A DNA stretch of 50,743 nucleotides from a virus (lineage: Duplodnaviria; Caudoviricetes). Below are positions 3,019 through 50,743 of the stretch, in pieces. The stretch is from positions 1 through 50,743 of the IMG/VR virus record IMGVR_UViG_3300025308_000004; one strand, given 5' to 3'. Position 1 is the stretch's first letter. Each line of letters begins with the position of its first letter. A program made the translations under genes and the position numbers. The notes below the pieces were generated by a model. The model had not been told where the DNA came from. It searched no databases and saw nothing but the letters and a program-made list of their open reading frames with translations.

Positions 3019-3177
3019 ATGAACTGGCTGACCAACATCGACCGCATGGCTGACAACGCACAACGCGCACGCTGCCACATCGCCGGGCTGGTATCGCACC
3101 ACATCCGCAGCATGGCGCAACTCAGGCGTGATCGGGCGGCGGAGAAATTGAGTAAACAACAAGGGGAAAGAAAATGA
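3019..3177 (+). CDS. Hypothetical protein (52 aa), not in the ORF track
   Basis: GAGG RBS, stop overlaps the bet start (ATGA). Confidence 0.5.
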   Translation: MNWLTNIDRMADNAQRARCHIAGLVSHHIRSMAQLRRDRAAEKLSKQQGERK

Positions 3178-38960: not shown

Positions 38961-39351
38961 AATACTCAATCGCCTCCTCTGCAAGAATCCTAACCTCGGT
39001 CGCGCCCAGCGTTCTTTTGGCAGATTCACGCAGGCTATCAACAAAATCGCGGCCATACAGATCGATCATTTTCAGCGTGTATTCTCTGATATGAAACTCT
39101 TTTCGGAACGTGTTGCACCCGCAACAGGCCGGTTTCAAGTTCTCTTCAAGCCATCGCGATGCCTTTTTCCCGCGCTCGATATAGTGCGCGCAATGTGCGT
39201 CTTTCCAGTGCAATCCGGTATCGCATGATATGCAGGTCACATATCCGGCGTGGTCTGCGTATTTCTGCCTGATGTATAGGCTCGCCAGTCGGTCTGCCTT
39301 TTCGATCAGCGTAGACAGTTTTACGCGCTTTGATTTGGTCTTTTGTTTCAC
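38941..39351 (-). CDS. ninG: NinG/Rap-like endonuclease
   Basis: YIR...CISC...AHYI.RG...N....C..CN pattern, nin-region position. Confidence 0.8.
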   Translation of the reverse strand: MKQKTKSKRVKLSTLIEKADRLASLYIRQKYADHAGYVTCISCDTGLHWKDAHCAHYIERGKKASRWLEENLKPACCGCNTFRKEFHIREYTLKMIDLYGRDFVDSLRESAKRTLGATEVRILAEEAIEYYGKSSE

Positions 39352-39548
39352 TCTATTTCCTTCGCCATGAATCTATCAGAATACACACATACAGTCACGC
39401 CAGAAACATACCGCGCGCGCTCAACTGGAGTTTTTGCGGCTCTGCATGATCTATATCCTTGGCGTGCCATTTCCTTTTCTACCTTCGAATCGCCAATGTA
39501 TGCGTTGAGGCAGTTTCGGCAGATTTTATCCTGTGAGCTTGCGGTCAT
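39348..39548 (-). CDS. Small Cys-containing protein
   Basis: CRNC motif; overlaps the ninG start. Confidence 0.55.
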   Translation of the reverse strand: MTASSQDKICRNCLNAYIGDSKVEKEMARQGYRSCRAAKTPVERARYVSGVTVCVYSDRFMAKEIE

Positions 39549-39621
39549 TTTTATGTGTAAAACTCGACTATAGCCAGATTAGGCACCTGCGCAGGTGCAT
39601 ATCACACGTTAGGAGACTTAT

Positions 39622-39945
39622 ATGGACGATATGAAGGTTCTCGAAAAGGATGGCGTAATCGACCATGACGCAATAGAAACAATAGTTCGCGTACAGGTGT
39701 TAGAAGCCATCGTTTCGTTGCAGTCCAACGCGTTGGTGGCGGCCCTATCTCTTTTTGAAGACGCAGAGCGAACTCGGCAGCTGAAGGGAATGGAAGATCG
39801 GCTAAAAGAGATTGAGGCTGATTACAAGACGATTTACATGACATCGCTATCTCCAATGGATTCTGATTATTCGGCAGAGTTGATTCAAGAAGTTCTCTCT
39901 GGTTATTTTGCTCAAATGCGTCGATCACTTGGCATCCACTCCTAA
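39622..39945 (+). CDS. Cassette A1 ORF (canonical orientation), hypothetical
   Basis: AGGAG RBS within the core site; stop TAA lies in the R'' box TCCTAAC. Confidence 0.7.
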   Translation: MDDMKVLEKDGVIDHDAIETIVRVQVLEAIVSLQSNALVAALSLFEDAERTRQLKGMEDRLKEIEADYKTIYMTSLSPMDSDYSAELIQEVLSGYFAQMRRSLGIHS

Positions 39946-39999
39946 CCTTACGTTCAACCCGGACCCCGCGAAGCGGGGCCGGTTACTTCCACGTTATGC
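39940..39999 (+). other. attC site A1 (60 nt)
   Basis: TCCTAAC-CTTAC-GTTCAACC...GGTTACT-TCCAC-GTTATGC with GC-rich central hairpin. Confidence 0.88.
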
Positions 40000-40003
40000 G
40001 TCT

Positions 40004-40240
40004 TCATGCCGCGCGCCCCTGCATGAATTCCTGAATGGTGCTCGGCTCCATGTATTCCAACGCGTGTGTCGGGTGGTACAGCCCTGACCTGCGACGGCCC
40101 GCTATGCGGATGCGCAAATACTTCCCCTTTGACCCCGTGATTGTTCCTGGAATGCCGACACCATCGTCCAGCATCACCCTCACATCACCGCCGCGCTTTG
40201 CTGGCACGCCATAGGTCTTGCGTATATATTCCATGCTCAT
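40004..40240 (-). CDS. Cassette A2 ORF (antisense), phage-type hypothetical
   Basis: GGAG RBS; MEYIRKTYGVPAKRGG...YHPT. Confidence 0.75.
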   Translation of the reverse strand: MSMEYIRKTYGVPAKRGGDVRVMLDDGVGIPGTITGSKGKYLRIRIAGRRRSGLYHPTHALEYMEPSTIQEFMQGRAA

Positions 40241-40264
40241 TATTGTTTCTCCGTATCACCGGCC

Positions 40265-40436
40265 GCCGAACCCGACACTCCAAGCGCCCTCCGGCATCTG
40301 CACTCTATTCGCCTGTCTTGGAGTGCAGCATCCGCACTGCCCTGCTATTTGAGGGTGAGGCTACCAATTTCTCCACCACTGCCATTGTTCAACCAATGCC
40401 TAAAGCCGCGCAAGGCACCTTAGCTACACGTTAGAA
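40265..40436 (+). other. Degenerate or composite attC A2
   Basis: GCCGAAC-CCGAC-ACTCCAAG left half and CCTTAGC-TACAC-GTTAGAA right half, 172 nt overall with poor pairing. Confidence 0.45.
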
Positions 40437-40604
40437 CGCATCGTATCGCGTCATGTACAGCACGCCATTATACAGATACCAGACCGCAGTTATTTGGCCG
40501 TGTCGCTCAGTGATCTTCTTTCCGAACAACCGAAGTTTCAGCATGAACCAGAAACTTGGATCGAATGTGCTCTTGCACGGAAACTGGAAATATTGTTCGT
40601 TCAT
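40431..40604 (-). CDS. Cassette A3 ORF (antisense), hypothetical
   Basis: GGAGG RBS; stop codon is the TTA of core site GTTAGAA. Confidence 0.6.
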   Translation of the reverse strand: MNEQYFQFPCKSTFDPSFWFMLKLRLFGKKITERHGQITAVWYLYNGVLYMTRYDAF

Positions 40605-40623
40605 TTCTTCCTCCACAAATGCG

Positions 40624-40683
40624 CCCTAACCATACGGTCAAGGCGGACTCCGCTACTCTCCGCCGCTTACCTTTTCGTTAGCC
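40624..40683 (+). other. attC site A3 (60 nt)
   Basis: CCCTAAC-CATAC-GGTCAAGG...GCTTACC-TTTTC-GTTAGCC. Confidence 0.8.
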
Positions 40684-40973
40684 GGCAACACTCCGAGCGC
40701 CTGCGCTTGCTCAACCGTCACCAACATTTGAGGGGGGCTTCGGCTGTGCAACGCCACAAGTCTGTCCACGTAGGGCTTCGCCGCCTTGGCGTAGCTCTCT
40801 TGCAGCATCGCCAAGGTTTCTCGCAGGTAGCGTTCCTCAGATGCGTCCGCGCAATCGCGGAAGGCATAGCGGCGCTCGCACGGCGTCGGCGGGCTGTCGT
40901 CCGGGTGGCAGGTGCATTGCCGGCTAACAGTTACGTCAACCGGACCTTGCGCCGGAATCAGCGTTTCACTCAT
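40653..40973 (-). CDS. Cassette A4 ORF (antisense), starts in attC A4 and stops in attC A3
   Basis: AGGAGG RBS and ATG in the attC loop; CTCHPDD.P.PC motif. Confidence 0.7.
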   Translation of the reverse strand: MSETLIPAQGPVDVTVSRQCTCHPDDSPPTPCERRYAFRDCADASEERYLRETLAMLQESYAKAAKPYVDRLVALHSRSPPQMLVTVEQAQALGVLPANEKVSGGE

Positions 40974-41020
40974 GATTTACCTCCTGTGCCGGCGCAAGGC
41001 CGGTTACGTCAGCGTTGGGC
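40922..41020 (+). other. attC site A4 (99 nt)
   Basis: GGCTAAC-AGTTA-CGTCAACC-GGACCTTGCGCCGG...CCGGCGCAAGGCC-GGTTACG-TCAGC-GTTGGGC; 12-nt perfect complementarity between cassette start and R'' flank. Confidence 0.88.
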
Positions 41021-41271
41021 GTCAGGGCATCGCGAGCAAATTGATTCCGCTGCGCTCCTGTCATGTATTCGCTATCCTCTGTTTCGCACAATTGCACCAG
41101 GACGGCTTCGCGCAGCCGGTATATTTCTTCTCTCGCATCTTTCAGTAACACCACACCATCGCGCTGCAACATGTGCGGCGATAGTTGGCGAAGATGCGCT
41201 TCGATTCTTTCGAGCACGCCCAACCCTACGGTCGAGCCGGACTCCTCACTACGCTTCGCTTCGTTCGTCAC
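40966..41271 (-). CDS. Cassette A5 ORF (antisense), starts in attC A5 and stops in attC A4
   Basis: GGAGG RBS from the attC L'/R' spacer, GTG start. Confidence 0.65.
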   Translation of the reverse strand: MTNEAKRSEESGSTVGLGVLERIEAHLRQLSPHMLQRDGVVLLKDAREEIYRLREAVLVQLCETEDSEYMTGAQRNQFARDALTPNADVTGLAPAQEVNHE

Positions 41272-41292
41272 CGCTCACCTCCATCGTTCGGC
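41218..41292 (+). other. attC site A5 (75 nt)
   Basis: GCCCAAC-CCTAC-GGTCGAGC...GCTCACC-TCCATC-GTTCGGC. Confidence 0.82.
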
Positions 41293-41294
41293 AC

Positions 41295-41323
41295 GTGTTC
41301 CCCACTCGCGTGGGGATGAACCG
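41295..41323 (+). CRISPR. Solitary type I-E-like CRISPR repeat (not an array)
   Basis: GTGTTCCCCACTCGCGTGGGGATGAACCG: 29 nt, 7-bp stem, 4-nt loop, ATGAACCG handle; 23/29 identical to the E. coli I-E repeat as I recall it; no second copy seen. Confidence 0.75.
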
Positions 41324-41329
41324 TTTTGC

Positions 41330-41878
41330 TTATAGTTGTATACTTTCTTTCAGCCAATCCGAATATGGTATGCGGATATTCTGGTGAAATTTATCGGCAG
41401 CATCTTCGTTATTGTCCAATTCTGCGCGGCTTTCAATGTCGCAAAATACTAGGATGGCATGGCGGCAGAATTCCTGCCAGTTCGCCACCGTGATTCCGAT
41501 TTCCATATCGCCATGCCCCAGCCCGTTCCCGCCTAATTCTCGGTCGTAGATTGGCCTGATCCATTGGTAAAACGATAAATCATTGCACCACATGCCGGCC
41601 AGCTTCGCCAGCGCGCCGCCTTTGGCTGAATGCTCGACTTTCTGCGCGACTGGCTCTATCGGCTGGTCATCGTCTCCCACTTCGATCAGCACCGCCATAA
41701 AGCGTTGCCCTGCCGTGTTCCCCTTCTTCGCGGTCATGCCCTTGAATGGCTCAAGCGCAGCCGAATCAGGTAGCCAGAAGGTAATCTTCGCCCCTGCCGT
41801 GTGGCTCTCCTGCCAGCCGGCCAGCATGATTTCACCCTGAAAACTCGGTTTTATACTCACTGCAATTTCCTCCACCAA
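41330..41878 (-). CDS. Conserved-looking phage hypothetical protein
   Basis: LAGMWCND..F and IESRAELDN motifs; nin-like region; start uncertain. Confidence 0.7.
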   Translation of the reverse strand: MVEEIAVSIKPSFQGEIMLAGWQESHTAGAKITFWLPDSAALEPFKGMTAKKGNTAGQRFMAVLIEVGDDDQPIEPVAQKVEHSAKGGALAKLAGMWCNDLSFYQWIRPIYDRELGGNGLGHGDMEIGITVANWQEFCRHAILVFCDIESRAELDNNEDAADKFHQNIRIPYSDWLKESIQL

Positions 41879-42066
41879 GCCCGAAACGCCGCAGGGTCGT
41901 AATATGCTTTCCCCCTGTGCCTTAATTTCGGCTCTGGCGCACCGTGAGCAGCCAATCGTCCGCGAAGCTGCGCCATCGTTACACCAAACTCTGCGGCGAA
42001 CTCTAGCGCGGTTCTGAGCGGCTTGTTGCCGCGCTCTCGGGGTGCGTTGTAGTGGGATAAATTCAT
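41857..42066 (-). CDS. Small HTH (excisionase/AlpA-like) protein
   Basis: EFAAEFGVT...PEP...YYDP pattern. Confidence 0.55.
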   Translation of the reverse strand: MNLSHYNAPRERGNKPLRTALEFAAEFGVTMAQLRGRLAAHGAPEPKLRHRGKAYYDPAAFRAWWRKLQ

Positions 42067-42338
42067 TGTGCCGCTCCTGGTTGTATTTCCTTCGCTTCCT
42101 CTATCAGCCTAACCTGCTCCCGCAATCGCTCGATATCACGGTCAATATCGGTAGTGTTCTTTCCGCCTGCTATGTATAGCTCGCGTATCCAGATTAGGTT
42201 AGTTAGCATTCTGGACTTTAGGCAGGCTGGTTTGTTTTGCACAGCTTCCTCAATTAGTGCCGCGTTTAGCACATTAACTTGCGCGGCTTCAAGCTTCAAC
42301 AGGTGATGCAGTCGGCTAAAAAATACTGCACCAAGCAT
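42063..42338 (-). CDS. Hypothetical protein
   Basis: ORF coupled to next gene; start uncertain. Confidence 0.45.
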   Translation of the reverse strand: MLGAVFFSRLHHLLKLEAAQVNVLNAALIEEAVQNKPACLKSRMLTNLIWIRELYIAGGKNTTDIDRDIERLREQVRLIEEAKEIQPGAAQ

Positions 42339-42349
42339 GTGTAATACTG

Positions 42350-43954
42350 TTATTCGAGCATGGATAAAATATCGGTCTGCCGGTAAGAGCGCGAGCCTTT
42401 ATGCGAGCCAAACAATGATCCTTGACTTAGTTCTCGTTCAATCCTCGCGCTTGCTGCCTTGAAAAAATCTTTCTTGATCTCAAAACCATAGGCTTCACGC
42501 TCAGACCTGATGGCAGCGATTATTGTTGATGCGCTACCAGCGCACGGGTCGATAATAACATCGCCTGGATCGGTGAATATTGAAATCAATCGCTCGATCA
42601 ATCGAACAGGTTTTTGAGTGTTGTGCGATACGCCAATTTCAGTGTCAAACGCAGGAATGCCATCAATTGTCAGATTGTAAACTCGCGTTTTTTGATGGAT
42701 AATTTTTACGCTTCCAACCTTTTGCAGTAAGAACTTTTCTTGTTTCAATGCTTTTTTGACAGAAGCATTTTTTGCATAGCTTCCCGTTAATCCAGCCTCT
42801 TGAAAAGTACCAATGTTCTTTTGTTGCTGGCTTGAACTCGCCACAGACTGAACACGGCTTTTCCCATTCTCCATCGACAAGTCTGCAACCAGAGTGCAGC
42901 CGCTTATGTTCAAGGGGCGTGACAAGTTGCAAATTGGAAATATTGTTGTTTGTTTTGTCGAAATCCTTGTGATGAACCTGCATACCGAGCGGTAATTTAC
43001 CATTATGCCGCTCCCAAACAAGGCAATGTTCGAGGCGAAGCTTTCCTTCTTCGTCTTTTTCAAATCGCAAATATCCCTTGGGGGTTTTTTTGTATTCTTT
43101 TCGCATGTAATCTCCGTTTTGTGTAATTGCTTAGGCTTCTGCGTATTATACACAGAAACGTTACTCAATACAAAATCGGATGTCTTTATTTGATCGGCAT
43201 TTACCCAAAATATGCCACCACCTCTTTTTATTAAAAACGGATGGTTCCATGTTGCTACGGTTTTATACTCGCCGCATTTTATTTCAACTAGTTTTTCGGC
43301 GTCATGCTGCGTGATGTGTGAGACAGTTCCGTATCTATTTGAATCTCCAACTTTTACGTCTTCGATTTTTACCCATAAGCCATTAAAAAATACCATTTCT
43401 CCTGCTGGAAGGCACGGATGGATCTTCTCGCTGTTGGTATCGTTCTCCCATGGTATTGCATTAAAAATCATCTTCCCGTGATTGTTGAATTTTGGGAGCT
43501 TGTCGCGGTACAGAATCAGCCCGTATTCGCAGTTTCCGACGACACGCATATTTGCCTTGAGCACCTGCGCGCTTGAATTCTTTACGAACACAAGATTGAT
43601 GTAATTATTCAGGCCATGCTTCTTCGCCTCTTCGATCAACTGGAATTGCTGATCGAACGCACAGAACACAATCATGCATGGAGCCTTGCCTGTTTCTTTT
43701 GGCTCAGGTATCAGCATCTTCGAGCAAAAATGCAAAAATTCTGGTATGCGAAAATCTTTATCGGTGTCGAAGAATTCTTTGTTTGCCAATGCGCTTTCGC
43801 CGTTTTTTATGTCGCCGCCCTCATACCACTCAACCGACGAACCGTAGGCTTTTTTCCCAACGTTATACGGAATGTCCGCAATAATGAGCTGCGCCTTTTT
43901 AATGGCGTAACGCTTCGAGTTTTGGAAGTGATCGTTAAAAAGTTCGTGCTTCAT
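42350..43954 (-). CDS. Beta-class N6-A/N4-C DNA methyltransferase interrupted by an intein
   Basis: DIPY (motif IV), HP|TQKP split by the insert, IIDPCAGSAST (motif I), YGFEI. Confidence 0.88.
   Translation of the reverse strand: MKHELFNDHFQNSKRYAIKKAQLIIADIPYNVGKKAYGSSVEWYEGGDIKNGESALANKEFFDTDKDFRIPEFLHFCSKMLIPEPKETGKAPCMIVFCAFDQQFQLIEEAKKHGLNNYINLVFVKNSSAQVLKANMRVVGNCEYGLILYRDKLPKFNNHGKMIFNAIPWENDTNSEKIHPCLPAGEMVFFNGLWVKIEDVKVGDSNRYGTVSHITQHDAEKLVEIKCGEYKTVATWNHPFLIKRGGGIFWVNADQIKTSDFVLSNVSVYNTQKPKQLHKTEITCEKNTKKPPRDICDLKKTKKESFASNIALFGSGIMVNYRSVCRFITRISTKQTTIFPICNLSRPLNISGCTLVADLSMENGKSRVQSVASSSQQQKNIGTFQEAGLTGSYAKNASVKKALKQEKFLLQKVGSVKIIHQKTRVYNLTIDGIPAFDTEIGVSHNTQKPVRLIERLISIFTDPGDVIIDPCAGSASTIIAAIRSEREAYGFEIKKDFFKAASARIERELSQGSLFGSHKGSRSYRQTDILSMLE
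42620..43414 (-). mobile_element. Intein (265 aa, residues 181-445)
   Basis: Starts CLPAGEMV, block B VATWNHPFL, ends VYNLTIDG...VSHN followed by Thr. Confidence 0.88.
42663..43106 (-). CDS. HNH endonuclease nested out of frame within the intein
   Basis: EHCLVWERHNG...VHHKDFDKTNNNISNLQLVT..EH; own GGAG RBS; C-terminal CxxC pairs. Confidence 0.85.
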   Translation of the reverse strand: MRKEYKKTPKGYLRFEKDEEGKLRLEHCLVWERHNGKLPLGMQVHHKDFDKTNNNISNLQLVTPLEHKRLHSGCRLVDGEWEKPCSVCGEFKPATKEHWYFSRGWINGKLCKKCFCQKSIETRKVLTAKGWKRKNYPSKNASLQSDN

Positions 43955-44009
43955 GTTATCCCCTACTATCGTTCCGACACTCTACACTAAGCAACAATTT
44001 TATGCTGAT

Positions 44010-44180
44010 TTATTTTGCAGATTTCTTAATAAACATATCCGCCGCAGATAGCGCCTTGCGCAGCACCTCAATCGGCAAATCAATATCGGCTTCCTTGTGC
44101 GGTACACCGTTCCAAATCAGCACCCGTCCGCCGACAAGTTGGATGGTTACGTCCTCAACTTCGAATGTTATGCTGCCCAT
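44010..44180 (-). CDS. Hypothetical protein (56 aa), not in the ORF track
   Basis: GGAGG RBS, TAATG overlap. Confidence 0.55.
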   Translation of the reverse strand: MGSITFEVEDVTIQLVGGRVLIWNGVPHKEADIDLPIEVLRKALSAADMFIKKSAK

Positions 44181-44635
44181 TATTTCCTCCGTTGCGCTAC
44201 TGATTCCAGCTCATTGTAAAAAGCGCGATACTTTGCTGTGCGCTCGAAGTCTTTAATCCCTGGATCTTTGATACGCCTAATATCGCTGTTGTGTCGAAGG
44301 TCTGCCATCTTTACGATAACTGCGTCAGGGTTTGCCTTCACCGCTGATTTATATTCTTCGTAGCTCTGGCCGCGATGCTTTGTCATCGCCATAATCCCTG
44401 AAATAACTCGTTCACTAAATCCGAGTTCGCGCAAATGCTGTGCTGTGACATCGGTATCTTCAAACAAATCATGCCCGATTGCTATCTGACCGAGTTCGTC
44501 ATCGCTATCTCTTGGCAAATAGTGTAGCACCTTCATGCAATGAAGGATGTACGGACGGCCAGATTTATCCAGAATGTTTTTAAATTTATCGGCTGCAATC
44601 GCAATCATCATCGCGAGCTGTTTACTTTGTTCCAT
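44180..44635 (-). CDS. HD-domain hydrolase, SpoT/Mesh1-like (small alarmone hydrolase-like)
   Basis: DKSGRPYILH, HDLFEDT, VKMADLRHN. Confidence 0.8.
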   Translation of the reverse strand: MEQSKQLAMMIAIAADKFKNILDKSGRPYILHCMKVLHYLPRDSDDELGQIAIGHDLFEDTDVTAQHLRELGFSERVISGIMAMTKHRGQSYEEYKSAVKANPDAVIVKMADLRHNSDIRRIKDPGIKDFERTAKYRAFYNELESVAQRRK

Positions 44636-44789
44636 TTTTCATTCTCCGTTGCGCTGCGATGATGTCCTTTACCCTTGATTCAGATAGGCCGTAGATCAAT
44701 GCGATGCTTTTCTGGCGCATTTCGTCCTCGGTGAATAGGCGGTGTATTTCGGCGTTTCTGGCGGCGTAGGATTGGCGTATGGTTTTCAT
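44622..44789 (-). CDS. Small HTH (Mor-like) protein, 55 aa, not in the ORF track
   Basis: RNAEI...IALIYGLSESRVKDII; ATGA overlap. Confidence 0.5.
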   Translation of the reverse strand: MKTIRQSYAARNAEIHRLFTEDEMRQKSIALIYGLSESRVKDIIAAQRRMKNGTK

Positions 44790-45604
44790 TCTGCCGAACC
44801 CCTGTAGCTATCCCAATTAAACGGCACACAAGCCCCACCATCCTCTCGCAATCGGTCGAACACGCGCTCGCCTAGAAAAACTTTTACCTCGCTTGGCGAT
44901 AGGTTAGAAAGCAGTAAAGTCGGCAACCTGTTTTCGTATCGCTCGTTCAAAACGTCGAACATCGCATTACGCTCAAAATCGCTACCGAACTGCACCCCGA
45001 TCTCGTCGATAATCAGCAAATCAGGCGACGAAAACAGCGACACAACATCGCTTTCAGATTCGTCTGAATCTTTGCGCCATGCGTCCTTGATTCTGCGCAT
45101 CATGCGTTGCACAGTGGTAAACAGCACGATCCCGCCGCGATTCATTACCGACAAGCCGATTCCTACTGACAAGTGCGTTTTCCCAGTACCCGGCTTTCCG
45201 CAAAATATCGCGCTTCGCCCGGTCTTTGAAACTTCGCTGAACTTTTCCGCGTACTCAGTCGCGAAAGCATGCGCGCTTTTCTGGCCTTCGTTCTTTGCTT
45301 CGAATTTTTCCAGTGTGCGATCAGTGAATCGAACAGGAATACCGGATTCACCAAGCCTTCGTTCCCATTGCCGCTGCTTTTCGGCGGCATCTCTGTCCCG
45401 CTCTGCGCGATCAGCATTTTCCATTTCAATCGCAGTGCATGCAGGGCATTTCGTCCACACTGAACCGAACACGTTTCGGCTATCAAACTCCCCATGCGTT
45501 TCGCAGGTTGCTTTGCGTGGTATCGGGTCGATCATCATCAACTTCAATTTACCCAACGATACCGGCTCTTCGTCTTCAATTTCAAAACTGTTTGCGTTGT
45601 TCAT
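44786..45604 (-). CDS. DnaC/IstB-like AAA+ helicase loader
   Basis: GKPGTGKT, LLIIDEIG, NERYEN.LPT...SNL, GERVFDRL. Confidence 0.9.
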   Translation of the reverse strand: MNNANSFEIEDEEPVSLGKLKLMMIDPIPRKATCETHGEFDSRNVFGSVWTKCPACTAIEMENADRAERDRDAAEKQRQWERRLGESGIPVRFTDRTLEKFEAKNEGQKSAHAFATEYAEKFSEVSKTGRSAIFCGKPGTGKTHLSVGIGLSVMNRGGIVLFTTVQRMMRRIKDAWRKDSDESESDVVSLFSSPDLLIIDEIGVQFGSDFERNAMFDVLNERYENRLPTLLLSNLSPSEVKVFLGERVFDRLREDGGACVPFNWDSYRGSAE

Positions 45605-46269
45605 AGCTTGGTAACTCCTTCGCCGTAGTCGCGATCATTAAAGTTTTCTGGTGATGCAGTTCGTTTTTGTCCAGCTGTCTTCGGCTCAAACAATCCCTGC
45701 CATCCATTTGACGCAGAATCAGCAAGCGACTGCGCGTATGGTAAACCTGCATCCTTCCACTTTCGCAGCTTATCGACTTGTGCCTGCATTTGCTCAGGAA
45801 GCATCTTTTTTCCCTTTCTGGTTTTTATCCACAATTCCCAATGACTACGATCAACCCAGTCCGGCAAGGCGAAAGCCGCGCTAGGTTTCTTCTGCTTCTT
45901 CTCTGTCTCTGTCTCTGTCTCTGTCTCTTCTCTTCTCTTCTCTGGTGCGTCATCTTGGCAACAAATTGACGCCACCTTGACGCCATCTTGCGGAGCATCT
46001 ATAAATCCATGTTCTATAAACAAGTTTAAATCTGGCTCAGTATCAAGATGGCAAAGTTTTTGAATGGCGCGAGGTGACGCCGGGATGACGCCATTGTGGT
46101 CAGCAGCAAGCAACCAGATGGCGACAAGTTGACCGCGCTGTGAGTCAGTCAGCGTTACCCACCCTATGTGGCGCATGCACTCGCGATGGATTTTTATCCA
46201 CGGCGGCTGTCCACGATCTTTCCGGTAGGATTGCCACTTGTCCCAGTTGTGAATGGTAAGGTTACTCAT
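45601..46269 (-). CDS. Phage replication initiator
   Basis: IHNWDKWQSY...PPWIK, ETETETETE linker, NGWQGLF C-terminus; upstream of the DnaC-like gene. Confidence 0.75.
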   Translation of the reverse strand: MSNLTIHNWDKWQSYRKDRGQPPWIKIHRECMRHIGWVTLTDSQRGQLVAIWLLAADHNGVIPASPRAIQKLCHLDTEPDLNLFIEHGFIDAPQDGVKVASICCQDDAPEKRREETETETETEKKQKKPSAAFALPDWVDRSHWELWIKTRKGKKMLPEQMQAQVDKLRKWKDAGLPYAQSLADSASNGWQGLFEPKTAGQKRTASPENFNDRDYGEGVTKL

Positions 46270-46270
46270 C

Positions 46271-46957
46271 TTACATGTCCTTCCCGTACCGCTTTGCCAG
46301 CCAGACAATACCCTCCGGCTCAACCTTCGTCTGAACGAATGCATGGCCGTTTGATTCGCCAGTGTGCAGGGTGAATAAGCCGCGATCAATGTAGTCTTGA
46401 AACGCCACCCAGTTACCGCCGCGCTTGAAAATCACCTTGTCGGCGGATAGTTCCGCGATGAACTCTTGCGGCTTGCGTTGCAGGATTTTTGCTACATCGG
46501 ATAGGCACTTGCTGGAACGAGCCTCAACGTAACGCTCTACGAAGGCAACGGCGGGCTTTTGTTGCTCTATCTGGGCTTGCTGTGCTTCGATGATTTCGGC
46601 TTGCTCTGCGGCTAGTCTAAGCGCGCCGGATAGCGTGGTAGGAATAGCGAACTGTTGCTGGGCTTCCAGTTCTTGCCATCGGTCGATTATTTTTGCGCGC
46701 TGGGCGATTGAGTAACCAGAGGTAAGAATCAAGGCTTCACGCTTCGGGAGGTCAACATGGCTAACCAATCCATTGCCCATGTTGTTCCATACGCGAATGC
46801 CTTTAAAATCAGGACTATCCAATTTTGGATACCCGTCTGGATAAAGTTCATCCAGCATCTTGCGAATATCTCGCAAAACATGTCCGTGTTCTTTGTCTGT
46901 TATTTCCGCAATGTCCTTGCTGGACATGGTTTGCTGGTTGCTGTGTATATGTAGCAT
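46271..46957 (-). CDS. Rha-family / antirepressor (Rha N-terminus plus KilA-C/ANT)
   Basis: [53 protein letters not shown]. Confidence 0.85.
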
Positions 46958-46971
46958 TTTGCGATCCAATG

Positions 46972-47080
46972 CAAAAAAGCCTTGAGGGAATCTCCAACCA
47001 GCTAGCTGGCTTTGGTCGCGTGGAGAGTATCCACCGGAGATTCCTTCAAGGCTTACTCAAGCGTCCGACCAAGGACGACG
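46972..47080 (-). ncRNA. c4-like attenuator leader upstream of the antirepressor
   Basis: Minus strand: hairpin CGTCC-TTGGTC-GGACG, then long hairpin AAGCCTTGA.GGAATCTCC/GGAGATTCC.TCAAGGCTT containing GACCAA, then a T run. Confidence 0.6.
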
Positions 47081-47101
47081 CCGAAAGTTCAGCGCAAAAG
47101 G

Positions 47102-47129
47102 ATTATAGCGATAGCTGCGACATTTGCAA
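47102..47129 (-). promoter_or_regulatory. Promoter TTGCAA-16-TATAAT
   Basis: Perfect -10 directly upstream of the leader. Confidence 0.6.
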
Positions 47130-47130
47130 C

Positions 47131-47159
47131 AAAAAAAAGACCTGCCACTAGGACAGGTC
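47131..47159 (-). terminator. Rho-independent terminator
   Basis: GACCTG(T)CC-TAGT-GGCAGGTC followed by T8. Confidence 0.7.
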
Positions 47160-47379
47160 AAAGCCTCGGGGGAGGAGTGTAGGCTGCTGGAATAGTGGCG
47201 CGGTAGGCAAATGCCGTTCGACGTACCTTCCACTTATAGCCAGCTTGGCTTGCTGTTTTAGGCCGGGAGCCACCCCTAATACGCCTGCTATTATTCCAAC
47301 AAGGAAGGGATTGCACAACTCGCCCGCTGCAACGGCTTATAAGTACTAAGCGCAGCAATCCCTATCTTGTTAGCCCTGA

Positions 47380-47408
47380 TTGCTCAGGGGTGTTTTATGG
47401 ATTATAAG
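47380..47408 (+). promoter_or_regulatory. Pc-like promoter facing cassette array B (TTGCTC-17-TATAAG)
   Basis: Consensus similarity; 22 nt upstream of the first core site. Confidence 0.45.
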
Positions 47409-47421
47409 ACAGATTTGGGGT

Positions 47422-47775
47422 CTAACTTACGTTAGATTTTTCAACCAAGGAGGTTTTATGAGTGATTCCAATATCAAAACAATCCACGGCCTTGTTCTCG
47501 TTCAGGGCGCTTTGCTTCAAGCTATGGCGTGGAAAGAAACGAGAAAATCTGATCTTCTTTACGAATTCTCTCAGCAGTACATACCACTTATTCAAGGTCT
47601 CAATAAGAACAAAGAGCCAGATAAAGAACTTATAGCAGCGGTCGAATTGGCGTATAAATCTATATCCGCACAACTCCCCAAAAACCACAGATCGAGCATT
47701 TCTTAAATAACACCATGCCGCAGCTCTATCTGCCGCCGCTTGGTTTCTTAAAAACTGTTCTCTCGTATAAGTCAT
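47422..47775 (-). CDS. Antisense overlapping ORF in B1 (MTYTREQFLRNQAAA...)
   Basis: RBS-like GAAGGGG; first 15 codons differ from the paralogue only synonymously. Confidence 0.5.
   Translation of the reverse strand: MTYTREQFLRNQAAADRAAAWCYLRNARSVVFGELCGYRFIRQFDRCYKFFIWLFVLIETLNKWYVLLREFVKKIRFSRFFPRHSLKQSALNENKAVDCFDIGITHKTSLVEKSNVS
47458..47706 (+). CDS. Cassette B1 ORF, paralogue of 48091-48318
   Basis: AAGGAGG RBS; synonymous differences versus the paralogue. Confidence 0.75.
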   Translation: MSDSNIKTIHGLVLVQGALLQAMAWKETRKSDLLYEFSQQYIPLIQGLNKNKEPDKELIAAVELAYKSISAQLPKNHRSSIS

Positions 47776-47804
47776 GGCGTTCACCCCTTCAAAAGGAAAA
47801 TAAA

Positions 47805-48005
47805 ATGAAAAAATATATCGTAGTAATTGCGCTCTTGTTGTCTTCTACTTCTGCATTCGCTGCTTCCGCCTTCTGGACGGGTCGCCAAGAACAAGTACAA
47901 ACCGTAACTTATCAATGGGCATGGAACTGTCAGTACAACTACAACGGCCAAATATTCTGGCGCATATTCAAAATGTCTTGCCCGTCTAGTGTCGAGGTTG
48001 AATAA
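47805..48005 (+). CDS. Small secreted protein (signal peptide, two Cys)
   Basis: MKKYIVVIALLLSSTSAFA signal; AAGGA RBS; ends just before attC B1. Confidence 0.75.
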   Translation: MKKYIVVIALLLSSTSAFAASAFWTGRQEQVQTVTYQWAWNCQYNYNGQIFWRIFKMSCPSSVEVE

Positions 48006-48007
48006 AA

Positions 48008-48070
48008 ATCTAACCCGCCGTTCAACCCGGACTCCGCAAGAGCGCGGAGCCGGTTAACTCTACGTTAGAT
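48008..48070 (+). other. attC site B1 (63 nt)
   Basis: ATCTAAC-CCGCC-GTTCAACC...GGTTAAC-TCTAC-GTTAGAT. Confidence 0.92.
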
Positions 48071-48405
48071 TTTTCAACCAAGGAGGTATCATGGAATCCA
48101 GCATCAAAACAATCCACGGTCTTGTTCTCGTTCAGGGTGCATTGCTTCAAGCTATTGCTTGGTCTAAAGCGAAAAATACTGAAATTGCTTTTGAGTTTTC
48201 GCAACAGTACATGCCAATTATTCAGGGTCTCAATAAGGAAAAAGAGCCAGATAAAGAACTTATATCCGCTGTGGAAAGGGCGCACAAAACCATCTCCGCA
48301 CAACTTCCTAAAAGATAAATATCTTGTGTCTCTCACATAACACCAAGATGAGGCCTTTTCTGCTGCTGCTTGATTTCTTAAAAACTGTTCGCGTGTGTAT
48401 GTCAT
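48022..48405 (-). CDS. Antisense overlapping ORF in B2, ends within attC B1
   Basis: AAGGA RBS; N-terminus conserved with the B1 copy. Confidence 0.5.
   Translation of the reverse strand: MTYTREQFLRNQAAAEKASSWCYVRDTRYLSFRKLCGDGFVRPFHSGYKFFIWLFFLIETLNNWHVLLRKLKSNFSIFRFRPSNSLKQCTLNENKTVDCFDAGFHDTSLVEKSNVELTGSALLRSPG
48091..48318 (+). CDS. Cassette B2 ORF, paralogue of 47458-47706
   Basis: AAGGAGG RBS; IKTIHGLVLVQGALLQA shared. Confidence 0.75.
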   Translation: MESSIKTIHGLVLVQGALLQAIAWSKAKNTEIAFEFSQQYMPIIQGLNKEKEPDKELISAVERAHKTISAQLPKR

Positions 48406-48426
48406 AGTGTTTAGTCCTTTCAAAAA

Positions 48427-48489
48427 ATCTAACCTGCCGTTCAACCAGACCGCCCAACAGCGGGGCGGCTGGTTAACTCTACGTTAGGC
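48427..48489 (+). other. attC site B2 (63 nt)
   Basis: ATCTAAC-CTGCC-GTTCAACC...GGTTAAC-TCTAC-GTTAGGC. Confidence 0.92.
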
Positions 48490-48825
48490 ACATGCGCGCC
48501 CGGTCTCTAATGCTTCGGCATGACCTCTGTATGTCGCAGCCGTGGCTTCGTAGTGACTTTGCAAATTACGCAGTGCCTGTGCAAGCGTCCTTCCGTTTGC
48601 AGTGTGCAGCCACACTGCGCGCTTACCGAACCCGGCGCTTTTTGCCTCGTACCGGTCAAAATCGTTTTGTTCCCGCCTTACAATTTGTAAAGTCGAAAGG
48701 CGATTAAACCCGCTCGATTGAATCCCCGTCGCGGACAGGTAATCTGGATTACTAGATTTATGGAGTGTCCAGTTATAGCCTGGCATTATTTTTTCAATCT
48801 CTGCTCTAAATTCTGTTGCCTTCAT
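48484..48825 (-). CDS. Cassette B3 ORF (antisense), phage-type hypothetical
   Basis: GAGG RBS; stop is the TTA of the core site. Confidence 0.75.
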   Translation of the reverse strand: MKATEFRAEIEKIMPGYNWTLHKSSNPDYLSATGIQSSGFNRLSTLQIVRREQNDFDRYEAKSAGFGKRAVWLHTANGRTLAQALRNLQSHYEATAATYRGHAEALETGRACA

Positions 48826-48855
48826 GGCCTACCTCTCTGTTATTTAGTAAATACA

Positions 48856-48921
48856 GCCTAACCCAACGGTGAAGAGGGATTGAACGATAAGGCCGTTCAA
48901 CCCCTTACCTCTACGTTGGGC
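48856..48921 (+). other. attC site B3 (66 nt)
   Basis: GCCTAAC-CCAAC-GGTGAAGA...CCTTACC-TCTAC-GTTGGGC. Confidence 0.88.
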
Positions 48922-49475
48922 ACCCACCCCGGAATGTTCAGGCGTACCAGAGTGCGCTTGCAATCCTTCGCCACTGGCACGGCTTCGTGCAAGAAGGTGA
49001 GCGTATGCCCCGCCCATACCTTGCTTGGTTCAATGTCAGTGCAAAGCATCCCGCTCACGTCAATGTGCGCGCAGTCCCCTCCGCTTCTTGGCGCATCGTC
49101 GTACTCTCCGAGGTATGCATAGCTTGCCATCACGTCCGTCGCCAATATCAGCGCCTCTGGCTCGTAGGCTTCGCCTATTACATGCCTGCCGCCTCTGTGT
49201 CCGCCGCCGTGTGCGTGTAGCGCCTTATTCCAATATCCGTCCACATGCACGCCGCCCCTGCGGTGCGATGCGCCAGCCTTTACTTCAGCCTGATCTATCA
49301 TCAAGAAAATCGAACCGGGCGCATCTATCCCATCAAGCATTTGGTCAATCGTTCCCTGCCACCGCTCAAGGTCGTTTGGCAATCCGCCGCTCTTCGTAAA
49401 TTCGCGCATGTAAACGCGCTCGCCGAGGAATTGCGGAAATTTAACTGCCCCGCGCTGTTGTACGTTGCTTTGCAT
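48897..49475 (-). CDS. Cassette B4 ORF (antisense), putative 2OG-Fe(II) oxygenase-like protein
   Basis: AAGGAG RBS; HVD...HEA...RTLVR metal/2OG-like motif; stops within attC B3. Confidence 0.6.
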   Translation of the reverse strand: MQSNVQQRGAVKFPQFLGERVYMREFTKSGGLPNDLERWQGTIDQMLDGIDAPGSIFLMIDQAEVKAGASHRRGGVHVDGYWNKALHAHGGGHRGGRHVIGEAYEPEALILATDVMASYAYLGEYDDAPRSGGDCAHIDVSGMLCTDIEPSKVWAGHTLTFLHEAVPVAKDCKRTLVRLNIPGWVPNVEVRG

Positions 49476-49501
49476 TTGATTCTCCTTTTCAAAGTTTGGT
49501 T

Positions 49502-49564
49502 GCCCAACCCATCGGTGAAGCGGAGCCGCCAAAAGCGGCGTCCCGCTTACCTCAAGCGTTAGAT
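49502..49564 (+). other. attC site B4 (63 nt)
   Basis: GCCCAAC-CCATC-GGTGAAGC...GCTTACC-TCAAGC-GTTAGAT. Confidence 0.9.
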
Positions 49565-49857
49565 GACTCGCGCTCAAGCCGTGCCCGCGCTTCCCATGCT
49601 AGCCCGTCGTCAGTCAAGCTTGCCGCCATCGCTGCGCAACATTCAGAGCACCAGCGGTAGCTCATCAGTTCCCCGTCAAACACCGCCGCCAGCAGTCGCA
49701 CGCGCTCGCCTGGCACAATCTCTTGCCGACACATGCCACAGGTTCCGCCCTTGCGCGCCGTGCCGATCTTGTCCTTCAGTACCTTGTCGCTTGGGCTGCC
49801 AAAGTCGCCCTCGAATGGGTTGGTTTTCAGGCACTCGGCTTCGTCAAACGTCGTCAT
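49552..49857 (-). CDS. Cassette B5 ORF (antisense), Zn-finger protein
   Basis: ARKGGTCGMCRQEI.PGE...CSEC; coupled to the cro-like stop; ends in attC B4. Confidence 0.7.
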   Translation of the reverse strand: MTTFDEAECLKTNPFEGDFGSPSDKVLKDKIGTARKGGTCGMCRQEIVPGERVRLLAAVFDGELMSYRWCSECCAAMAASLTDDGLAWEARARLERESSNA

Positions 49858-50060
49858 CTAACCCTCCATTCTTTCGGGATTGGAATCCGCGCAGCCTTCA
49901 TGCGCCTGATGATGTTAGCCGATTGCTTATCTGTAAGCTCTTCCGGCAGATACCAGATTGCATTGTCTGCGCGCTCGCCAGCCCATCCCAATTTTTTAGC
50001 AGCTTGGCGCAATGATACTCCGTCAGCCGTTAGGTGTTTAATCAAGTCTGCTTTTTTCAT
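49854..50060 (-). CDS. Cro-like HTH regulator
   Basis: MKKADLI...SLRQAAKKLG...IWYLPEEL; first gene after the divergent promoter. Confidence 0.7.
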   Translation of the reverse strand: MKKADLIKHLTADGVSLRQAAKKLGWAGERADNAIWYLPEELTDKQSANIIRRMKAARIPIPKEWRVR

Positions 50061-50066
50061 TGGCTT

Positions 50067-50095
50067 ATTATAAGCAAAGAATAAGTGCCTTGCAA
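50067..50095 (-). promoter_or_regulatory. Leftward early promoter TTGCAA-17-TATAAT (predicts leaderless mRNA)
   Basis: Near-consensus; -10 ends 6 nt before the ATG at 50060. Confidence 0.75.
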
Positions 50096-50124
50096 TTTAT
50101 TTTTAACCAGCACGAAAAAAGTGC

Positions 50125-50152
50125 TTGCATTATTCAAAATTGCTGGCACAAT
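50125..50152 (+). promoter_or_regulatory. Possible rightward early promoter TTGCAT-16-CACAAT
   Basis: Back-to-back with the leftward promoter; weaker match. Confidence 0.4.
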
Positions 50153-50581
50153 TGGAACCACTCCAGCAGCAATGCGAAGAGTGAAACGAACCGGAGCGCA
50201 AACGCAGTGCAGACTACCGCACCTTATCTACAGATCATCGTAGATCGGACAAACGTAAACCCTTAAGCGCAGACGTTACGAGATACACATTGCCGAAACC
50301 AAATCAACGGTGGAGAGCTGAATAGAATCTCTGTTCGCAGGGGATTGAATGTAGTGGATAGCAGTGGATGTTGCAATCGGCGTTGCCAAGATTCTGTTTG
50401 CTGGCGCTATTGGCGGAATCAGCGCAATGGTATTCGTAATTCCAGGTATCGCATTTTTGAAAAGCTGACGATTGAGTAATACGGATGGCGGCCACCCGAA
50501 CCAAACCGCCCGACCAAAGGATGTTCGACAGATTCCTTTCCAGCCTTGGACGGCACTTATTAACCAAATTGGAGATAGCAA

Positions 50582-50743
50582 ATGATACTGATAGACGGAG
50601 TTTGTTTCAAAACAATCGAAAGCGCAGCAAGTGCGCTTGTCGTGGCAAAGAAAGTTGAAATCTACAACCTGCCGCTGGTCACCGCGCTGCCTGATTTGCC
50701 AGCAGCGACTGATGTGCGCTTCTACAACATGCCGCTGGTCACC
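50582..50743 (+). CDS. LRR protein, N-terminal part (continues at nt 1)
   Basis: GGAG RBS; MILIDGVCFKTIESAASALVVAKKVEIYNLPLVTALPDLPAATDVRFYNMPLVT. Confidence 0.8.
   Translation, partial: MILIDGVCFKTIESAASALVVAKKVEIYNLPLVTALPDLPAATDVRFYNMPLVT

Follow-up and report, generated by a model that had tools for sequence, protein, structure and literature searches.

Phage genome and integrase search

The analysed stretch of DNA (50.7 kb, hereafter the window) is the complete or nearly complete genome of an uncultivated tailed phage from groundwater. Terminase, portal, a RecE/RecT-like pair, replication genes, and an anti-repressor are present, CheckV gave the record a completeness of 100%, and the two ends of the window are separated by about 440 bases in the relative G001. 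The first-pass annotation had recognised no tyrosine recombinase, and this was borne out, as neither PF00589 nor TIGR02249 (integron integrase) matched anywhere in the 50.7-kb record, while both detected their targets in 14/14 control genomes. Among ten attC-bearing viral records, none held a match above the TIGR02249 cut-off; nine had no integrase match whatsoever, and in the tenth (G002) weak matches of 22 and 16 bits resembled an ordinary integrase. Since nine of the ten show no tyrosine recombinase, these phages may be virulent.

A cluster of attC sites lacking an integrase is termed a CALIN, which IntegronFinder defines as at least two neighbouring attC sites with no integron integrase nearby. 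With four attC sites within 1.4 kb, four more within 1.6 kb, and no intI in the record, both phage arrays are CALINs. A complete integron would have intI, attI, and the Pc promoter beside the array.

attC sites

Two covariance models were used: R2, trained solely on 30 bacterial attC sites adjoining integron-integrase genes in four genomes, and R1, trained on the window's own eight sites. The sites are 60 to 99 bases long, lie on the + strand throughout, and are grouped into the arrays A and B:

39940..39999, + strand: attC A1 (R2 54.3 bits, E 3.3e-11)
40624..40683, + strand: attC A2 (R2 51.7 bits)
40922..41020, + strand: attC A3, with a long loop (R2 25.6 bits, R1 50.1 bits)
41218..41292, + strand: attC A4, final site of array A (R2 58.3 bits)
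48008..48070, + strand: attC B1, near-identical to the bacterial integron consensus (R2 80.2 bits, E 1.3e-17)
48427..48489, + strand: attC B2, bottom-strand fold with T and G bulges (R2 52.1 bits)
48856..48921, + strand: attC B3 (R2 49.5 bits)
49502..49564, + strand: attC B4 (R2 48.4 bits)

The proposal of eight well-formed sites in a single orientation held under the covariance-model check, as the bacterially trained R2 recovered all eight (25.6 to 80.2 bits) at E values from 3.8e-4 down to 1.3e-17, with the next-best match in the window reaching only 14.5 bits. On the - strand of the same sites, R1 gave at most 12.7 bits, a strong strand asymmetry. The terminal AAC of R'' (RYYYAAC) and the initial GTT of R' (GTTRRRY) are present in every site, and the complete R' motif in seven of eight, the exception being GTTCGGC at 41286-41292. 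Pairing in the R and L helices reached 80% of cells, compared with 72% after shuffling and 22-44% with partners slid. Half of the pairs (11/22) changed on both sides; column pair 19/82 of the L helix, for example, is CG in four sites and GC in four. The - (bottom) strand folds into the textbook attC hairpin, the L'' arm of which shows single-base bulges, most cleanly at 48427-48489, and the extra L'' base, taken from the alignment and read as bottom strand, would be G in six sites and C in two. With inverse R''/R' cores, an L''/L' helix with unpaired L'' bases, and covariance-model matches, the eight sites are genuine integron attC sites that form two integrase-less arrays.

Array layout and cassette junctions

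The arrays and their incomplete sites are as follows:

39608..41292, + strand: array A, composed of five or six cassette units between a bare R' core (left) and a complete attC (right)
39601..39614, + strand: left insertion point of array A; no attC lies upstream of its CGTTAGG core, G of GTT at 39608
40387..40436, + strand: degenerate attC remnant, ending in GTTAGAA, the start of the next unit (R2 14.5 bits, E 0.21)
47431..49880, + strand: array B, five cassette units with a truncated attC at the end
47420..47437, + strand: mini-site GTCTAAC-TTAC-GTTAGAT marking the left end of array B, in which R'' and R' are separated by 4 bases and the inner part is missing (weak, R1 11.1 bits, E 1.5)
49856..49880, + strand: truncated attC, with R'', a CCTCC spacer, and an L''-like stretch left, by comparison with the full attC of L174-L180

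The remainder of the truncated site was replaced by the 3' end of the gene at 49854-50060. As array B ends in a truncated attC on the right and in a mini-site on the left, parts of the arrays may be frozen. The remnant, the mini-site, and the truncated attC had been overlooked by the earlier reader.

Opening of a circular cassette at G|TT leaves as its footprint a unit start (TTRRRY...) that is complementary to the unit's own R''. This signature had been claimed for nine of ten cassettes, and the same count was obtained here. In eight of ten units, the start is the exact reverse complement of the unit's own R'' flank over 7-12 bases, one further unit (starting at the GTTAGAA of the remnant) matches at 10 of 12 bases, and the signature fails in unit 39993-40393. 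The background is 8 of 90 non-cognate pairs with at least 7 bases. R' boxes pair with the R'' of the following site rather than with that of their own site, within-site pairing amounting to just 4-7 of 7 positions, and this arrangement is in turn the footprint of G|TT exchange.

Cassette genes and translation signals

The following open reading frames and flanking signals were assigned to the arrays (sense and antisense refer to attC):

39622..39945, + strand: 107 aa, sense, no known family and no Pfam or PHROG match (coding score +22.9, opposite strand -16.3)
40004..40240, - strand: 78 aa, antisense, phrog_2730 (PHROG E 1.4e-12; coding score +7.4)
40431..40616, - strand: 61 aa, antisense (coding score +6.6)
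40653..40973, - strand: 106 aa, antisense, start in the attC A3 loop and end in attC A2 (coding score +9.6)
40966..41271, - strand: 101 aa, antisense, GTG start in the attC A4 loop (coding score +13.8)
47458..47706, + strand: 82 aa, sense, 72% identical over 74 aa to its paralogue 48091-48318 (DNA repeat D1, 77%)
47805..48005, + strand: 66 aa, sense, second frame in the cassette of 47458-47706, hydrophobic N-terminus judged by eye to be a putative signal peptide (coding score +6.2)
48091..48318, + strand: 75 aa, sense (coding score +11.6)
48484..48825, - strand: 113 aa, antisense, its stop being the TAA of the reverse-complemented R' box (coding score +11.1)
48897..49475, - strand: 192 aa, antisense, phrog_8970, protein widespread among phages (PHROG E 1e-50; 45 phage records)
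49552..49857, - strand: 101 aa, antisense, phrog_19515, weak DUF7576 match
50067..50095, - strand: promoter-like sequence directed into array B, weakly supported (10/12 consensus matches, regional site counts not above chance)
47139..47159, - strand: hairpin with T-run resembling a terminator, far end of array B (weak evidence)

Toxin-antitoxin families were absent from the window's cassettes in Pfam and PHROG searches. Several attC sites contain translation signals: the spacer between R'' and L'' carries the ribosome-binding site, and start codons are found either in enlarged loops or in the extension of R''. For the frame at 49552-49857, the ATG lies within the R'' extension and the attC spacer provides the ribosome-binding site. 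The loop of attC A3 holds the GGAGG and ATG of 40653-40973 together with the stop of 40966-41271, which overlaps the start of the next frame (ATGA).

Because such sites affect expression, they lend some weight to the view that the hairpins are phage regulatory or structural elements (terminators, intergenic repeats) that merely resemble attC and do not recombine. The intergenic location and the lack of a matching Rfam family fit this view as well. Nevertheless, it is extremely improbable, given that a model built from intI-adjacent sites matches down to E 1e-17, that 48008-48070 is almost the bacterial consensus, and that the R'-to-next-R'' pairing bears the mark of G|TT exchange.

Gene direction in phage and bacterial arrays

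The canonical cassette, a promoterless top-strand frame followed by its own attC, does not describe the window, where seven of ten units are antisense to attC and three are sense. Read along the gene, an antisense cassette presents attC first and the gene second, and its genes are co-directional with the surrounding phage genes. With direction in other loci called by a codon model trained on this window's genes, and with some of the compared IMG/VR contigs possibly not being phage, 38 of 51 intervals in phage arrays were antisense, 3 sense, and 10 unclear, compared with 40 sense, 6 antisense, and 13 unclear among 59 intervals in bacterial arrays.

Cassette mobility among phages

Cassettes are mobile at G|TT among phages. 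The cassette at 49558-49862 was found in 11 viral loci with 70-93% protein identity, and all attC matches there (26/26) lie on the strand opposite the gene. GTTAGATGAC forms its start, preceded by a different attC site in each of L174, L176, L178, L179, and L180, so that similarity sets in at G|TT in all five viral contexts with a readable left neighbour. In L174 and L180, the cassette's own attC is common to both, and the following cassettes differ. The content of 48914-49508 recurs at 93.4% identity over 595 bases in the viral contig L147, and a fragment of 48915-49508 lies behind a third attC in L156, both with the left boundary at G|TT. The related phage G009 has the left flank of array A in common with the window; identity stops after CGTTAGG, and six different cassettes follow. 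The predicted gain and loss of genes at the G|TT crossover point was thus supported by all these contexts. No recombination event was seen, and contigs from two public runs over the region contained no joints.

The window is a phage genome with two genuine attC clusters, the mobile cassettes of which are probably exchanged at G|TT by the IntI of the infected cell. Each unit would be a cassette whose boundary is the G|TT within an R' box. Once the bottom strand (- strand of the window) becomes single-stranded, attC would fold into its hairpin, a host integron integrase would exchange strands at G|TT with another attC or a bare GTT site, and replication would resolve the product, whereby cassettes could be excised, inserted, and swapped between phage genomes. 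We infer host IntI as the agent, as well as its timing, the transcripts that express the cassettes, and the roles of the cassette proteins.

Some comparisons count against this explanation. Between the window and L147, and between L007 and L167, similarity ends at R'' and the interior of the next attC is unrelated, which exchange at R' alone does not predict. These two pairs, together with a 120-base attC that L110 and L167 have in common without common flanks, would suit attC-derived sites moved mainly by an agent other than IntI, for which RecE/RecT-like recombination and a switch of template at the hairpin base are candidates, crossovers then falling at both hairpin ends. The phage does encode a RecT-like annealing protein and a RecE-like exonuclease, and IntI was not found in the ten viral records. 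Even so, we consider such movement very unlikely, as G|TT is the left boundary in the five contexts of 49558-49862 with a readable left neighbour and in both other contexts of 48915-49508, the cassette's own attC moves along in both L174 and L180, in accord with the IntI model, and the unpaired bases and strand asymmetry that serve the strand choice of IntI are kept (50-80 bits vs at most 12.7). To our knowledge, no hairpin-based mechanism of this kind has been described.

A passive origin, in which a piece of a bacterial chromosomal integron was caught once by illegitimate recombination and is now inert, would account for a phage without integrase and for the decay seen in three places (a degenerate site, a mini-site, and a truncated attC). 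Integron fragments caught by temperate phages, such as the Vibrio prophages, are indeed described in the available part of Qi et al. (PMC9892861). This origin has little probability here, since the two arrays occupy separate places, each between phage genes, and cassette genes belong to the phage families phrog_2730, phrog_8970, and phrog_19515. Furthermore, gene direction is opposite to that of bacterial cassettes, none of the 317 frames of the sampled bacterial arrays matched, the same cassettes occur in other phage arrays with different neighbours, and G009 carries different cassettes at the same insertion point.

Bacterial integrons and candidate hosts

The R1 search yielded 91 attC sites in 27 bacterial loci, organised as co-oriented arrays. 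Four of the five such bacterial genomes tested encode an integron integrase above the curated TIGR02249 cut-off, with intact intI beside the arrays. In three arrays, intI is adjacent and divergent, so the forward strand of the model equals the canonical top strand. The occurrence of the same attC type beside intact intI makes the use of a host integrase, as originally suggested, plausible, with action in trans being the inferred part of that suggestion. Judging from attC similarity alone, the most likely host would be a betaproteobacterium of groundwater, for instance Gallionella or one of its relatives.

The sedentary chromosomal integrons of Gallionella, Methylobacillus arboreus, and relatives (L112, L117/L140, L122, L134) have the same attC type as the phages, and models trained on either set find the other. 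Unit sizes are similar (approximately 200-1500 bases), the junction rule is alike, and one bacterial pair shares its content and the entire downstream attC. Unlike the phage arrays, however, these integrons have an adjacent divergent intI and mostly sense genes, and their cargo, which includes SEFIR/TIR and racemase genes, has no protein in common with the phage arrays. Between 269 phage-array and 317 bacterial-array frames, no cassette protein was common, the sole matches being attC-encoded stretches of 14-22 residues. With gene direction also opposite, the earlier suggestion of cassette exchange with host integrons found no support.

Comparison with known systems

The article of Qi, Rajabal, Ghaly, Tetu, and Gillings (Front Microbiol 2023, PMC9892861), in its available part, reports 17 integrase-less attC clusters from a screen of 10,705 genomes of cultured phages, in arrays of 'typical structure' with a boundary noted at inverted GTTRRRY motifs; IntI1 recombined five of six phage attC sites in their assays. 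The kind has therefore been known since 2023, and the first-pass placement of integrase-less clusters mainly on chromosomes and plasmids finds no support in view of these 17 phage clusters. As far as that part shows, their CALINs, for example in Tetrasphaera phage TJE1, resemble the present arrays in having no integrase and small cassettes mostly of unknown function. Methyltransferase cargo occurs five times there, and here once in L162, with one candidate, identified by eye, in the next unit of L147. A covariance-model scan of TJE1 gave three weak matches (12.7-19.5 bits) just after the + strand orf1-3, which is a sense arrangement. In contrast to the CALINs of Qi et al., so far as described in that part, genes are mostly antisense here with translation signals in attC, two arrays with eight sites are present, and a given cassette can be followed through many uncultivated phages.

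Loot et al. (bioRxiv 10.1101/2022.09.11.507474, available part) described IntI-mediated cassette insertion outside att sites, at attG sites, in bacterial genomes. The shape of array A, with a bare R' on the left, a complete attC on the right, and phage flanks, is the one expected for insertion at a plain GTT of that kind, and the site at 39601-39614 would be a candidate attG or attI-like site.

The genes of inverted cassettes in chromosomal integrons are likewise antisense to the attC top strand in an otherwise ordinary array. Such cassettes were reportedly described by Richard et al. in Sci Adv in 2024, mostly as toxin-antitoxin pairs with their own promoters. They are a minority in bacteria (6/59 here), whereas inversion is the rule in these phages, where the cargo consists of phage genes. 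The reversed direction, the ribosome-binding sites and start codons in attC, and the absence of proteins common with the sampled bacterial arrays look new.

Tentatively, the phages could maintain a pool of inverted cassettes for themselves, in which attC precedes the gene and carries translation signals; the pool would circulate by parasitising host IntI, as a phage-side counterpart of the integron rather than a by-product; we regard this as a real possibility that falls somewhat short of an even chance. With inversion, the bottom strand, which recombines, would coincide with the coding (non-template) strand, and phage transcription could read the cassette genes. Phage cassettes would then be silent if captured by a host integron, and host cassettes silent in the phage.

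Implications

Integrons are usually regarded as a bacterial device, and recent work has presented their cassettes as stores of anti-phage defence. Integrase-less phages with well-formed arrays suggest that integron machinery also serves phages, with cassette units traceable from phage to phage and breakpoints at the integrase cleavage point. Given real cassette arrays of mostly reversed phage genes in a phage without integrase, phages seem to swap small genes via host IntI. If the reversed direction is general, it would mark a separate, phage-adapted cassette pool, provide a simple sequence rule that separates phage from bacterial arrays, and, because ordinary phage gene families occur here as cassettes, offer a tractable system for how cassettes are born. 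The finding also adds a modular gene-exchange route to the known causes of phage mosaicism.

Identity of the attC sites and absence of an integrase

The window is a linear IMG/VR virus record of 50,743 bases with a CheckV completeness of 100%, and PHROG matches assign it a portal and a large terminase, an anti-repressor, an O-like replication protein and a DnaC-like loader, as well as a methyltransferase-like protein, a RecE-like exonuclease and a RecT-like annealing protein. The features relevant here are:

39608-41292, + strand: array A, an attC cassette array
47431-49880, + strand: array B, an attC cassette array
42350-43954, − strand: 534-aa protein with a methyltransferase-like C-terminus, with 209 relatives in viral contigs
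3174-5713, + strand: adjacent genes for the RecT-like annealing protein and the RecE-like exonuclease
41295-41323, + strand: one copy of a 29-base repeat of CRISPR type, separated by 2 bases from the final attC of array A and occurring nowhere else in the window
50661-50683 and 50721-50743: at the extreme end of the record, a direct repeat of 23 bases whose copies are 60 bases apart and 96% identical

The first-pass annotation had recognised no tyrosine recombinase in this apparently complete genome. Profile searches agreed, as neither a tyrosine recombinase (PF00589) nor an integron integrase (TIGR02249) was detected in the window, with both profiles positive in all 14 control genomes. In the related viral record G001, the two window ends lie approximately 440 bases apart, so that a missing integrase gene would have no space. 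The integron integrase was also absent from 10 of 10 attC-bearing viral records. Speculatively, single-stranded DNA made by the RecE/RecT-like pair could help attC folding.

When the eight candidate attC sites were aligned, the R and L helices paired in 80% of cells, compared to 72% after shuffling and 22-44% with slid partners, and double-sided changes occurred in 11 of the 22 helix pairs. A covariance model built from these sites (R1) returned only the same eight in the window, with 50-77 bits on the + strand and a maximum of 12.7 bits on the − strand. Since R1 matches its own training sites by construction, independent attC sites were sought. Searching a genome collection with an exact pattern from three window sites yielded 27 stretches, six of them from Gallionella and the others from Methylobacillus arboreus, Methylophilaceae, Nitrosospira, Nitrosomonadales, Burkholderiales, Sulfurifustaceae, Nitrospirota, Desulfobacteraceae and several more taxa. 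Within these 27 bacterial loci, R1 found 91 sites in co-oriented arrays with a spacing of a few hundred bases, and an integron integrase scored above the NCBI curated cut-off in four of the five genomes tested. At three loci (L134, L122 and L112), intI adjoins the array and points away from it; these arrays are complete integrons, and the forward strand of the model is the canonical top strand.

A second model (R2) was trained solely on 30 of these bacterial sites. It detected each of the eight window sites on the + strand (E 1.3e-17 to 3.8e-4), and its next match (40387-40436) was weak. The eight well-formed attC sites initially noticed were thereby confirmed with purely bacterial training data. 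The site at 48008-48070 nearly equals the bacterial consensus, and by folding, the − strand of the window is the bottom strand, with the bulged bases on the L'' arm. Cassette recombination works via the attC bottom strand, intI is under SOS control, and clusters of attC sites lacking an integrase (CALINs) are a recognised class. Rfam returned nothing in the window at gathering thresholds, and an E-value search of 41200-41420 gave a chance hit only.

Cassette junctions and array ends

In integron arrays, the final six bases of an R' box are part of the following cassette and pair with the R'' of that same cassette. This signature had been claimed for nine of the ten units in the window, and the recount came to the same number: cognate starts and R'' were perfectly complementary over 7-12 bases in eight units and at 10 of 12 positions in one, while the remaining unit failed. 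Non-cognate pairs reached at least 7 bases in 8 of 90 cases, and R'' and R' inside one and the same site paired at only 4-7 of 7 positions. Array A opens on a bare R' core (39608) and closes with a complete attC, as would be expected of an insertion at a plain GTT. The left end of array B is a mini-site (R'', four bases, R'), and its right end is a truncated attC that runs into the 3' end of the gene at 49854-50060.

Cassette mobility among viral relatives

The 38-kb phage G009 has its DnaC-like gene in common with the window at 91%. The left flank of array A is 80.5% identical between the two, and this identity stops right after CGTTAGG, beyond which G009 carries six attC sites and unrelated cassettes. 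Where array B begins on the left, no clean alignment with G009 was obtained. Scanning viral contigs with the conserved left flank of array A returned G009 only, and no empty site was found. Relatives of the 49558-49862 cassette were found in 11 viral loci. The left neighbour is readable in five, and in each of these the similarity starts with GTTAGATGAC, preceded by a different attC. The viral locus L147 holds the content at 48914-49508 with 93.4% identity across 595 bases, flanked by two unrelated attC sites, and a fragment of this content stands behind a third attC in a metagenome contig. The first-pass annotation had staked its reading on boundaries in relatives coinciding with G|TT, the crossover point of the integron integrase inside the R' box, and it passed this test.

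With regards to the breakpoints, the cassette content in a bacterial pair moves together with the downstream attC, as an exchange at R' only predicts. Likewise, the 49558-49862 cassette keeps its own attC in L174 and L180, after which the two viral loci continue with different cassettes. In two phage pairs, the similarity extends no further than R'', and the interior of the attC is unrelated; moreover, one attC is common to two phages, with flanks that are not shared. The proposal that every phage cassette breaks at R' as well as at R'' is true of these two content pairs, but was downgraded in view of the 49558-49862 family. For the pairs ending at R'', occasional top-strand exchange, a fast compensatory change of the L boxes (compare L174 with L175) or another recombination route are possible.

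Arrays are located elsewhere in other relatives, with seven sites in two clusters in G001, three in G002 and three or four in G003. A pattern scan added 11 viral contigs with this attC type, and R2 gave 73 hits in the 19 phage loci scanned (these 11 contigs and eight other loci). The large phage genome G414, a record of 194,269 bases with direct terminal repeats that is rated complete, has approximately six attC sites of this type at locus L166. The genes there are antisense, and no integrase match was obtained in this record.

The 534-aa methyltransferase-like protein is a mosaic module, because it is found in otherwise unrelated phages. At locus L001, an attC array lies immediately upstream of a relative of its gene. 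Used as a marker, it led to 80 loci, only two of which had attC sites; as these two share little other DNA with the window, they are poor for locus comparison. No relatives were found via the 181-aa protein adjoining array A, and none of 50,697 phage records matched 39000-50743 by megablast.

Four runs of a single groundwater-metagenome study contained 12-18% of the sampled words. Two of them were mapped and yielded short exact contigs at low depth and without joints, which do not bear on excision circles or deletions either way. In run X1, the summed contig depth was 123.6 in the window bin 40960-41351 compared to 0-4 elsewhere, probably from abundant contigs that are otherwise unrelated but contain the attC or the CRISPR-type repeat.

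Gene direction and translation signals inside attC

According to coding scores and PHROG matches, seven genes of the window cassettes lie on the − strand and hence run antisense to the top strand of attC, and three units lie on the + strand. The same codon model was applied to the intervals between neighbouring attC sites, omitting intervals below 120 or above 2500 bases as well as the loci L163, with hits that mirror the bit scores of L162, and L108, with no hits. The bacterial arrays (27 loci) contained 40 sense, 6 antisense and 13 unclear intervals, and the phage arrays (17 loci) 3 sense, 38 antisense and 10 unclear. Six records linked to the window by phage genes or a common cassette (L147) gave 21 antisense, 2 sense and 3 unclear, and the separately counted L158 gave 9, 1 and 1, respectively. 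Long sense ORFs of bacterial arrays match SEFIR/TIR and racemase, and long antisense ORFs of phage arrays match N6/N4 methylase, HNH endonuclease and Sak annealing protein. In the published phage TJE1, three weak model hits follow + strand genes, a sense arrangement unlike the majority in the window. Top-strand insertion was considered as the cause of the antisense genes and rejected; by reasoning, it would invert the attC as well, yet all eight sites are on one strand.

The antisense arrangement is built into the attC. The CCTCC spacer after R'' is the ribosome binding site of the ORF at 49552-49857, the ATG of which lies within the R'' extension. Two attC sites, at 40922-41020 and 41218-41292, have enlarged loops that contain the start codons of the ORFs at 40653-40973 and 40966-41271, respectively, and the loop of the former site additionally contains GGAGG. 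Similar long-loop sites are present in G009, one of them at 1844-1967 of its locus L146 (read on the − strand), where an antisense ORF takes its start and its signal peptide from the loop and the R''/L'' arm. Read by eye, this ORF (…LGGC) would be a lipoprotein with attC sequence translated as its signal peptide.

The two paralogous cassettes are open on both strands. Their minus-strand frames, at 47422-47784 (120 aa) and 48022-48405 (127 aa), have a conserved MTYTREQFLRNQAAA at the start and are 64% identical. With weak coding scores (+2.1 and +2.2), they may represent either a short convergent gene or a frame that is open by chance. For the protein at 48897-49475, no relative was found in the PDB by sequence, and it matched only viral hypothetical clusters in the Atlas, the nearest named one being a PhyH dioxygenase cluster at 0.84, below the trusted level.

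Exchange with bacteria

The proposed cassette exchange with host integrons was not borne out. Between 269 phage-array ORFs and 317 bacterial-array ORFs, the latter from a small sample of approximately 190 kb, only eight matches of 14-22 residues were found, all attC-encoded, and the same comparison showed three cassette proteins common to different phages. A tblastn search of 16 window ORFs against the collected loci gave one match of 16 residues, again attC-encoded.

With up to 3 mismatches, the 29-base repeat next to array A was found in arrays with 61-base spacing in 28 of 401 genomes from the order to which the Gallionella genome G006 belongs, and its best published matches differ by 1 base. 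It was absent from five integron-bearing genomes and from every other phage locus examined. The repeat may be a mini-array leftover or a decoy directed against host CRISPR.

Comparison with previous work

Taken together, the first-pass observation of two integrase-less arrays was confirmed, and its interpretation was partly supported. In Qi et al. 2023 (PMC9892861), a screen of 10,705 phage genomes resulted in 3 complete integrons, 1 In0 element and 17 CALINs, and IntI1 recombined 5 of 6 phage attC sites. Loot et al. (bioRxiv 10.1101/2022.09.11.507474) describe cassette insertion at non-att genomic sites. Phage arrays with reversed gene direction or attC-embedded translation signals were not reported in the literature surveyed, mostly at abstract level, which does not prove their absence. 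The reversed cassette architecture seems undescribed. The kind of element is already known, and the window is a clear and unusually traceable example of it.
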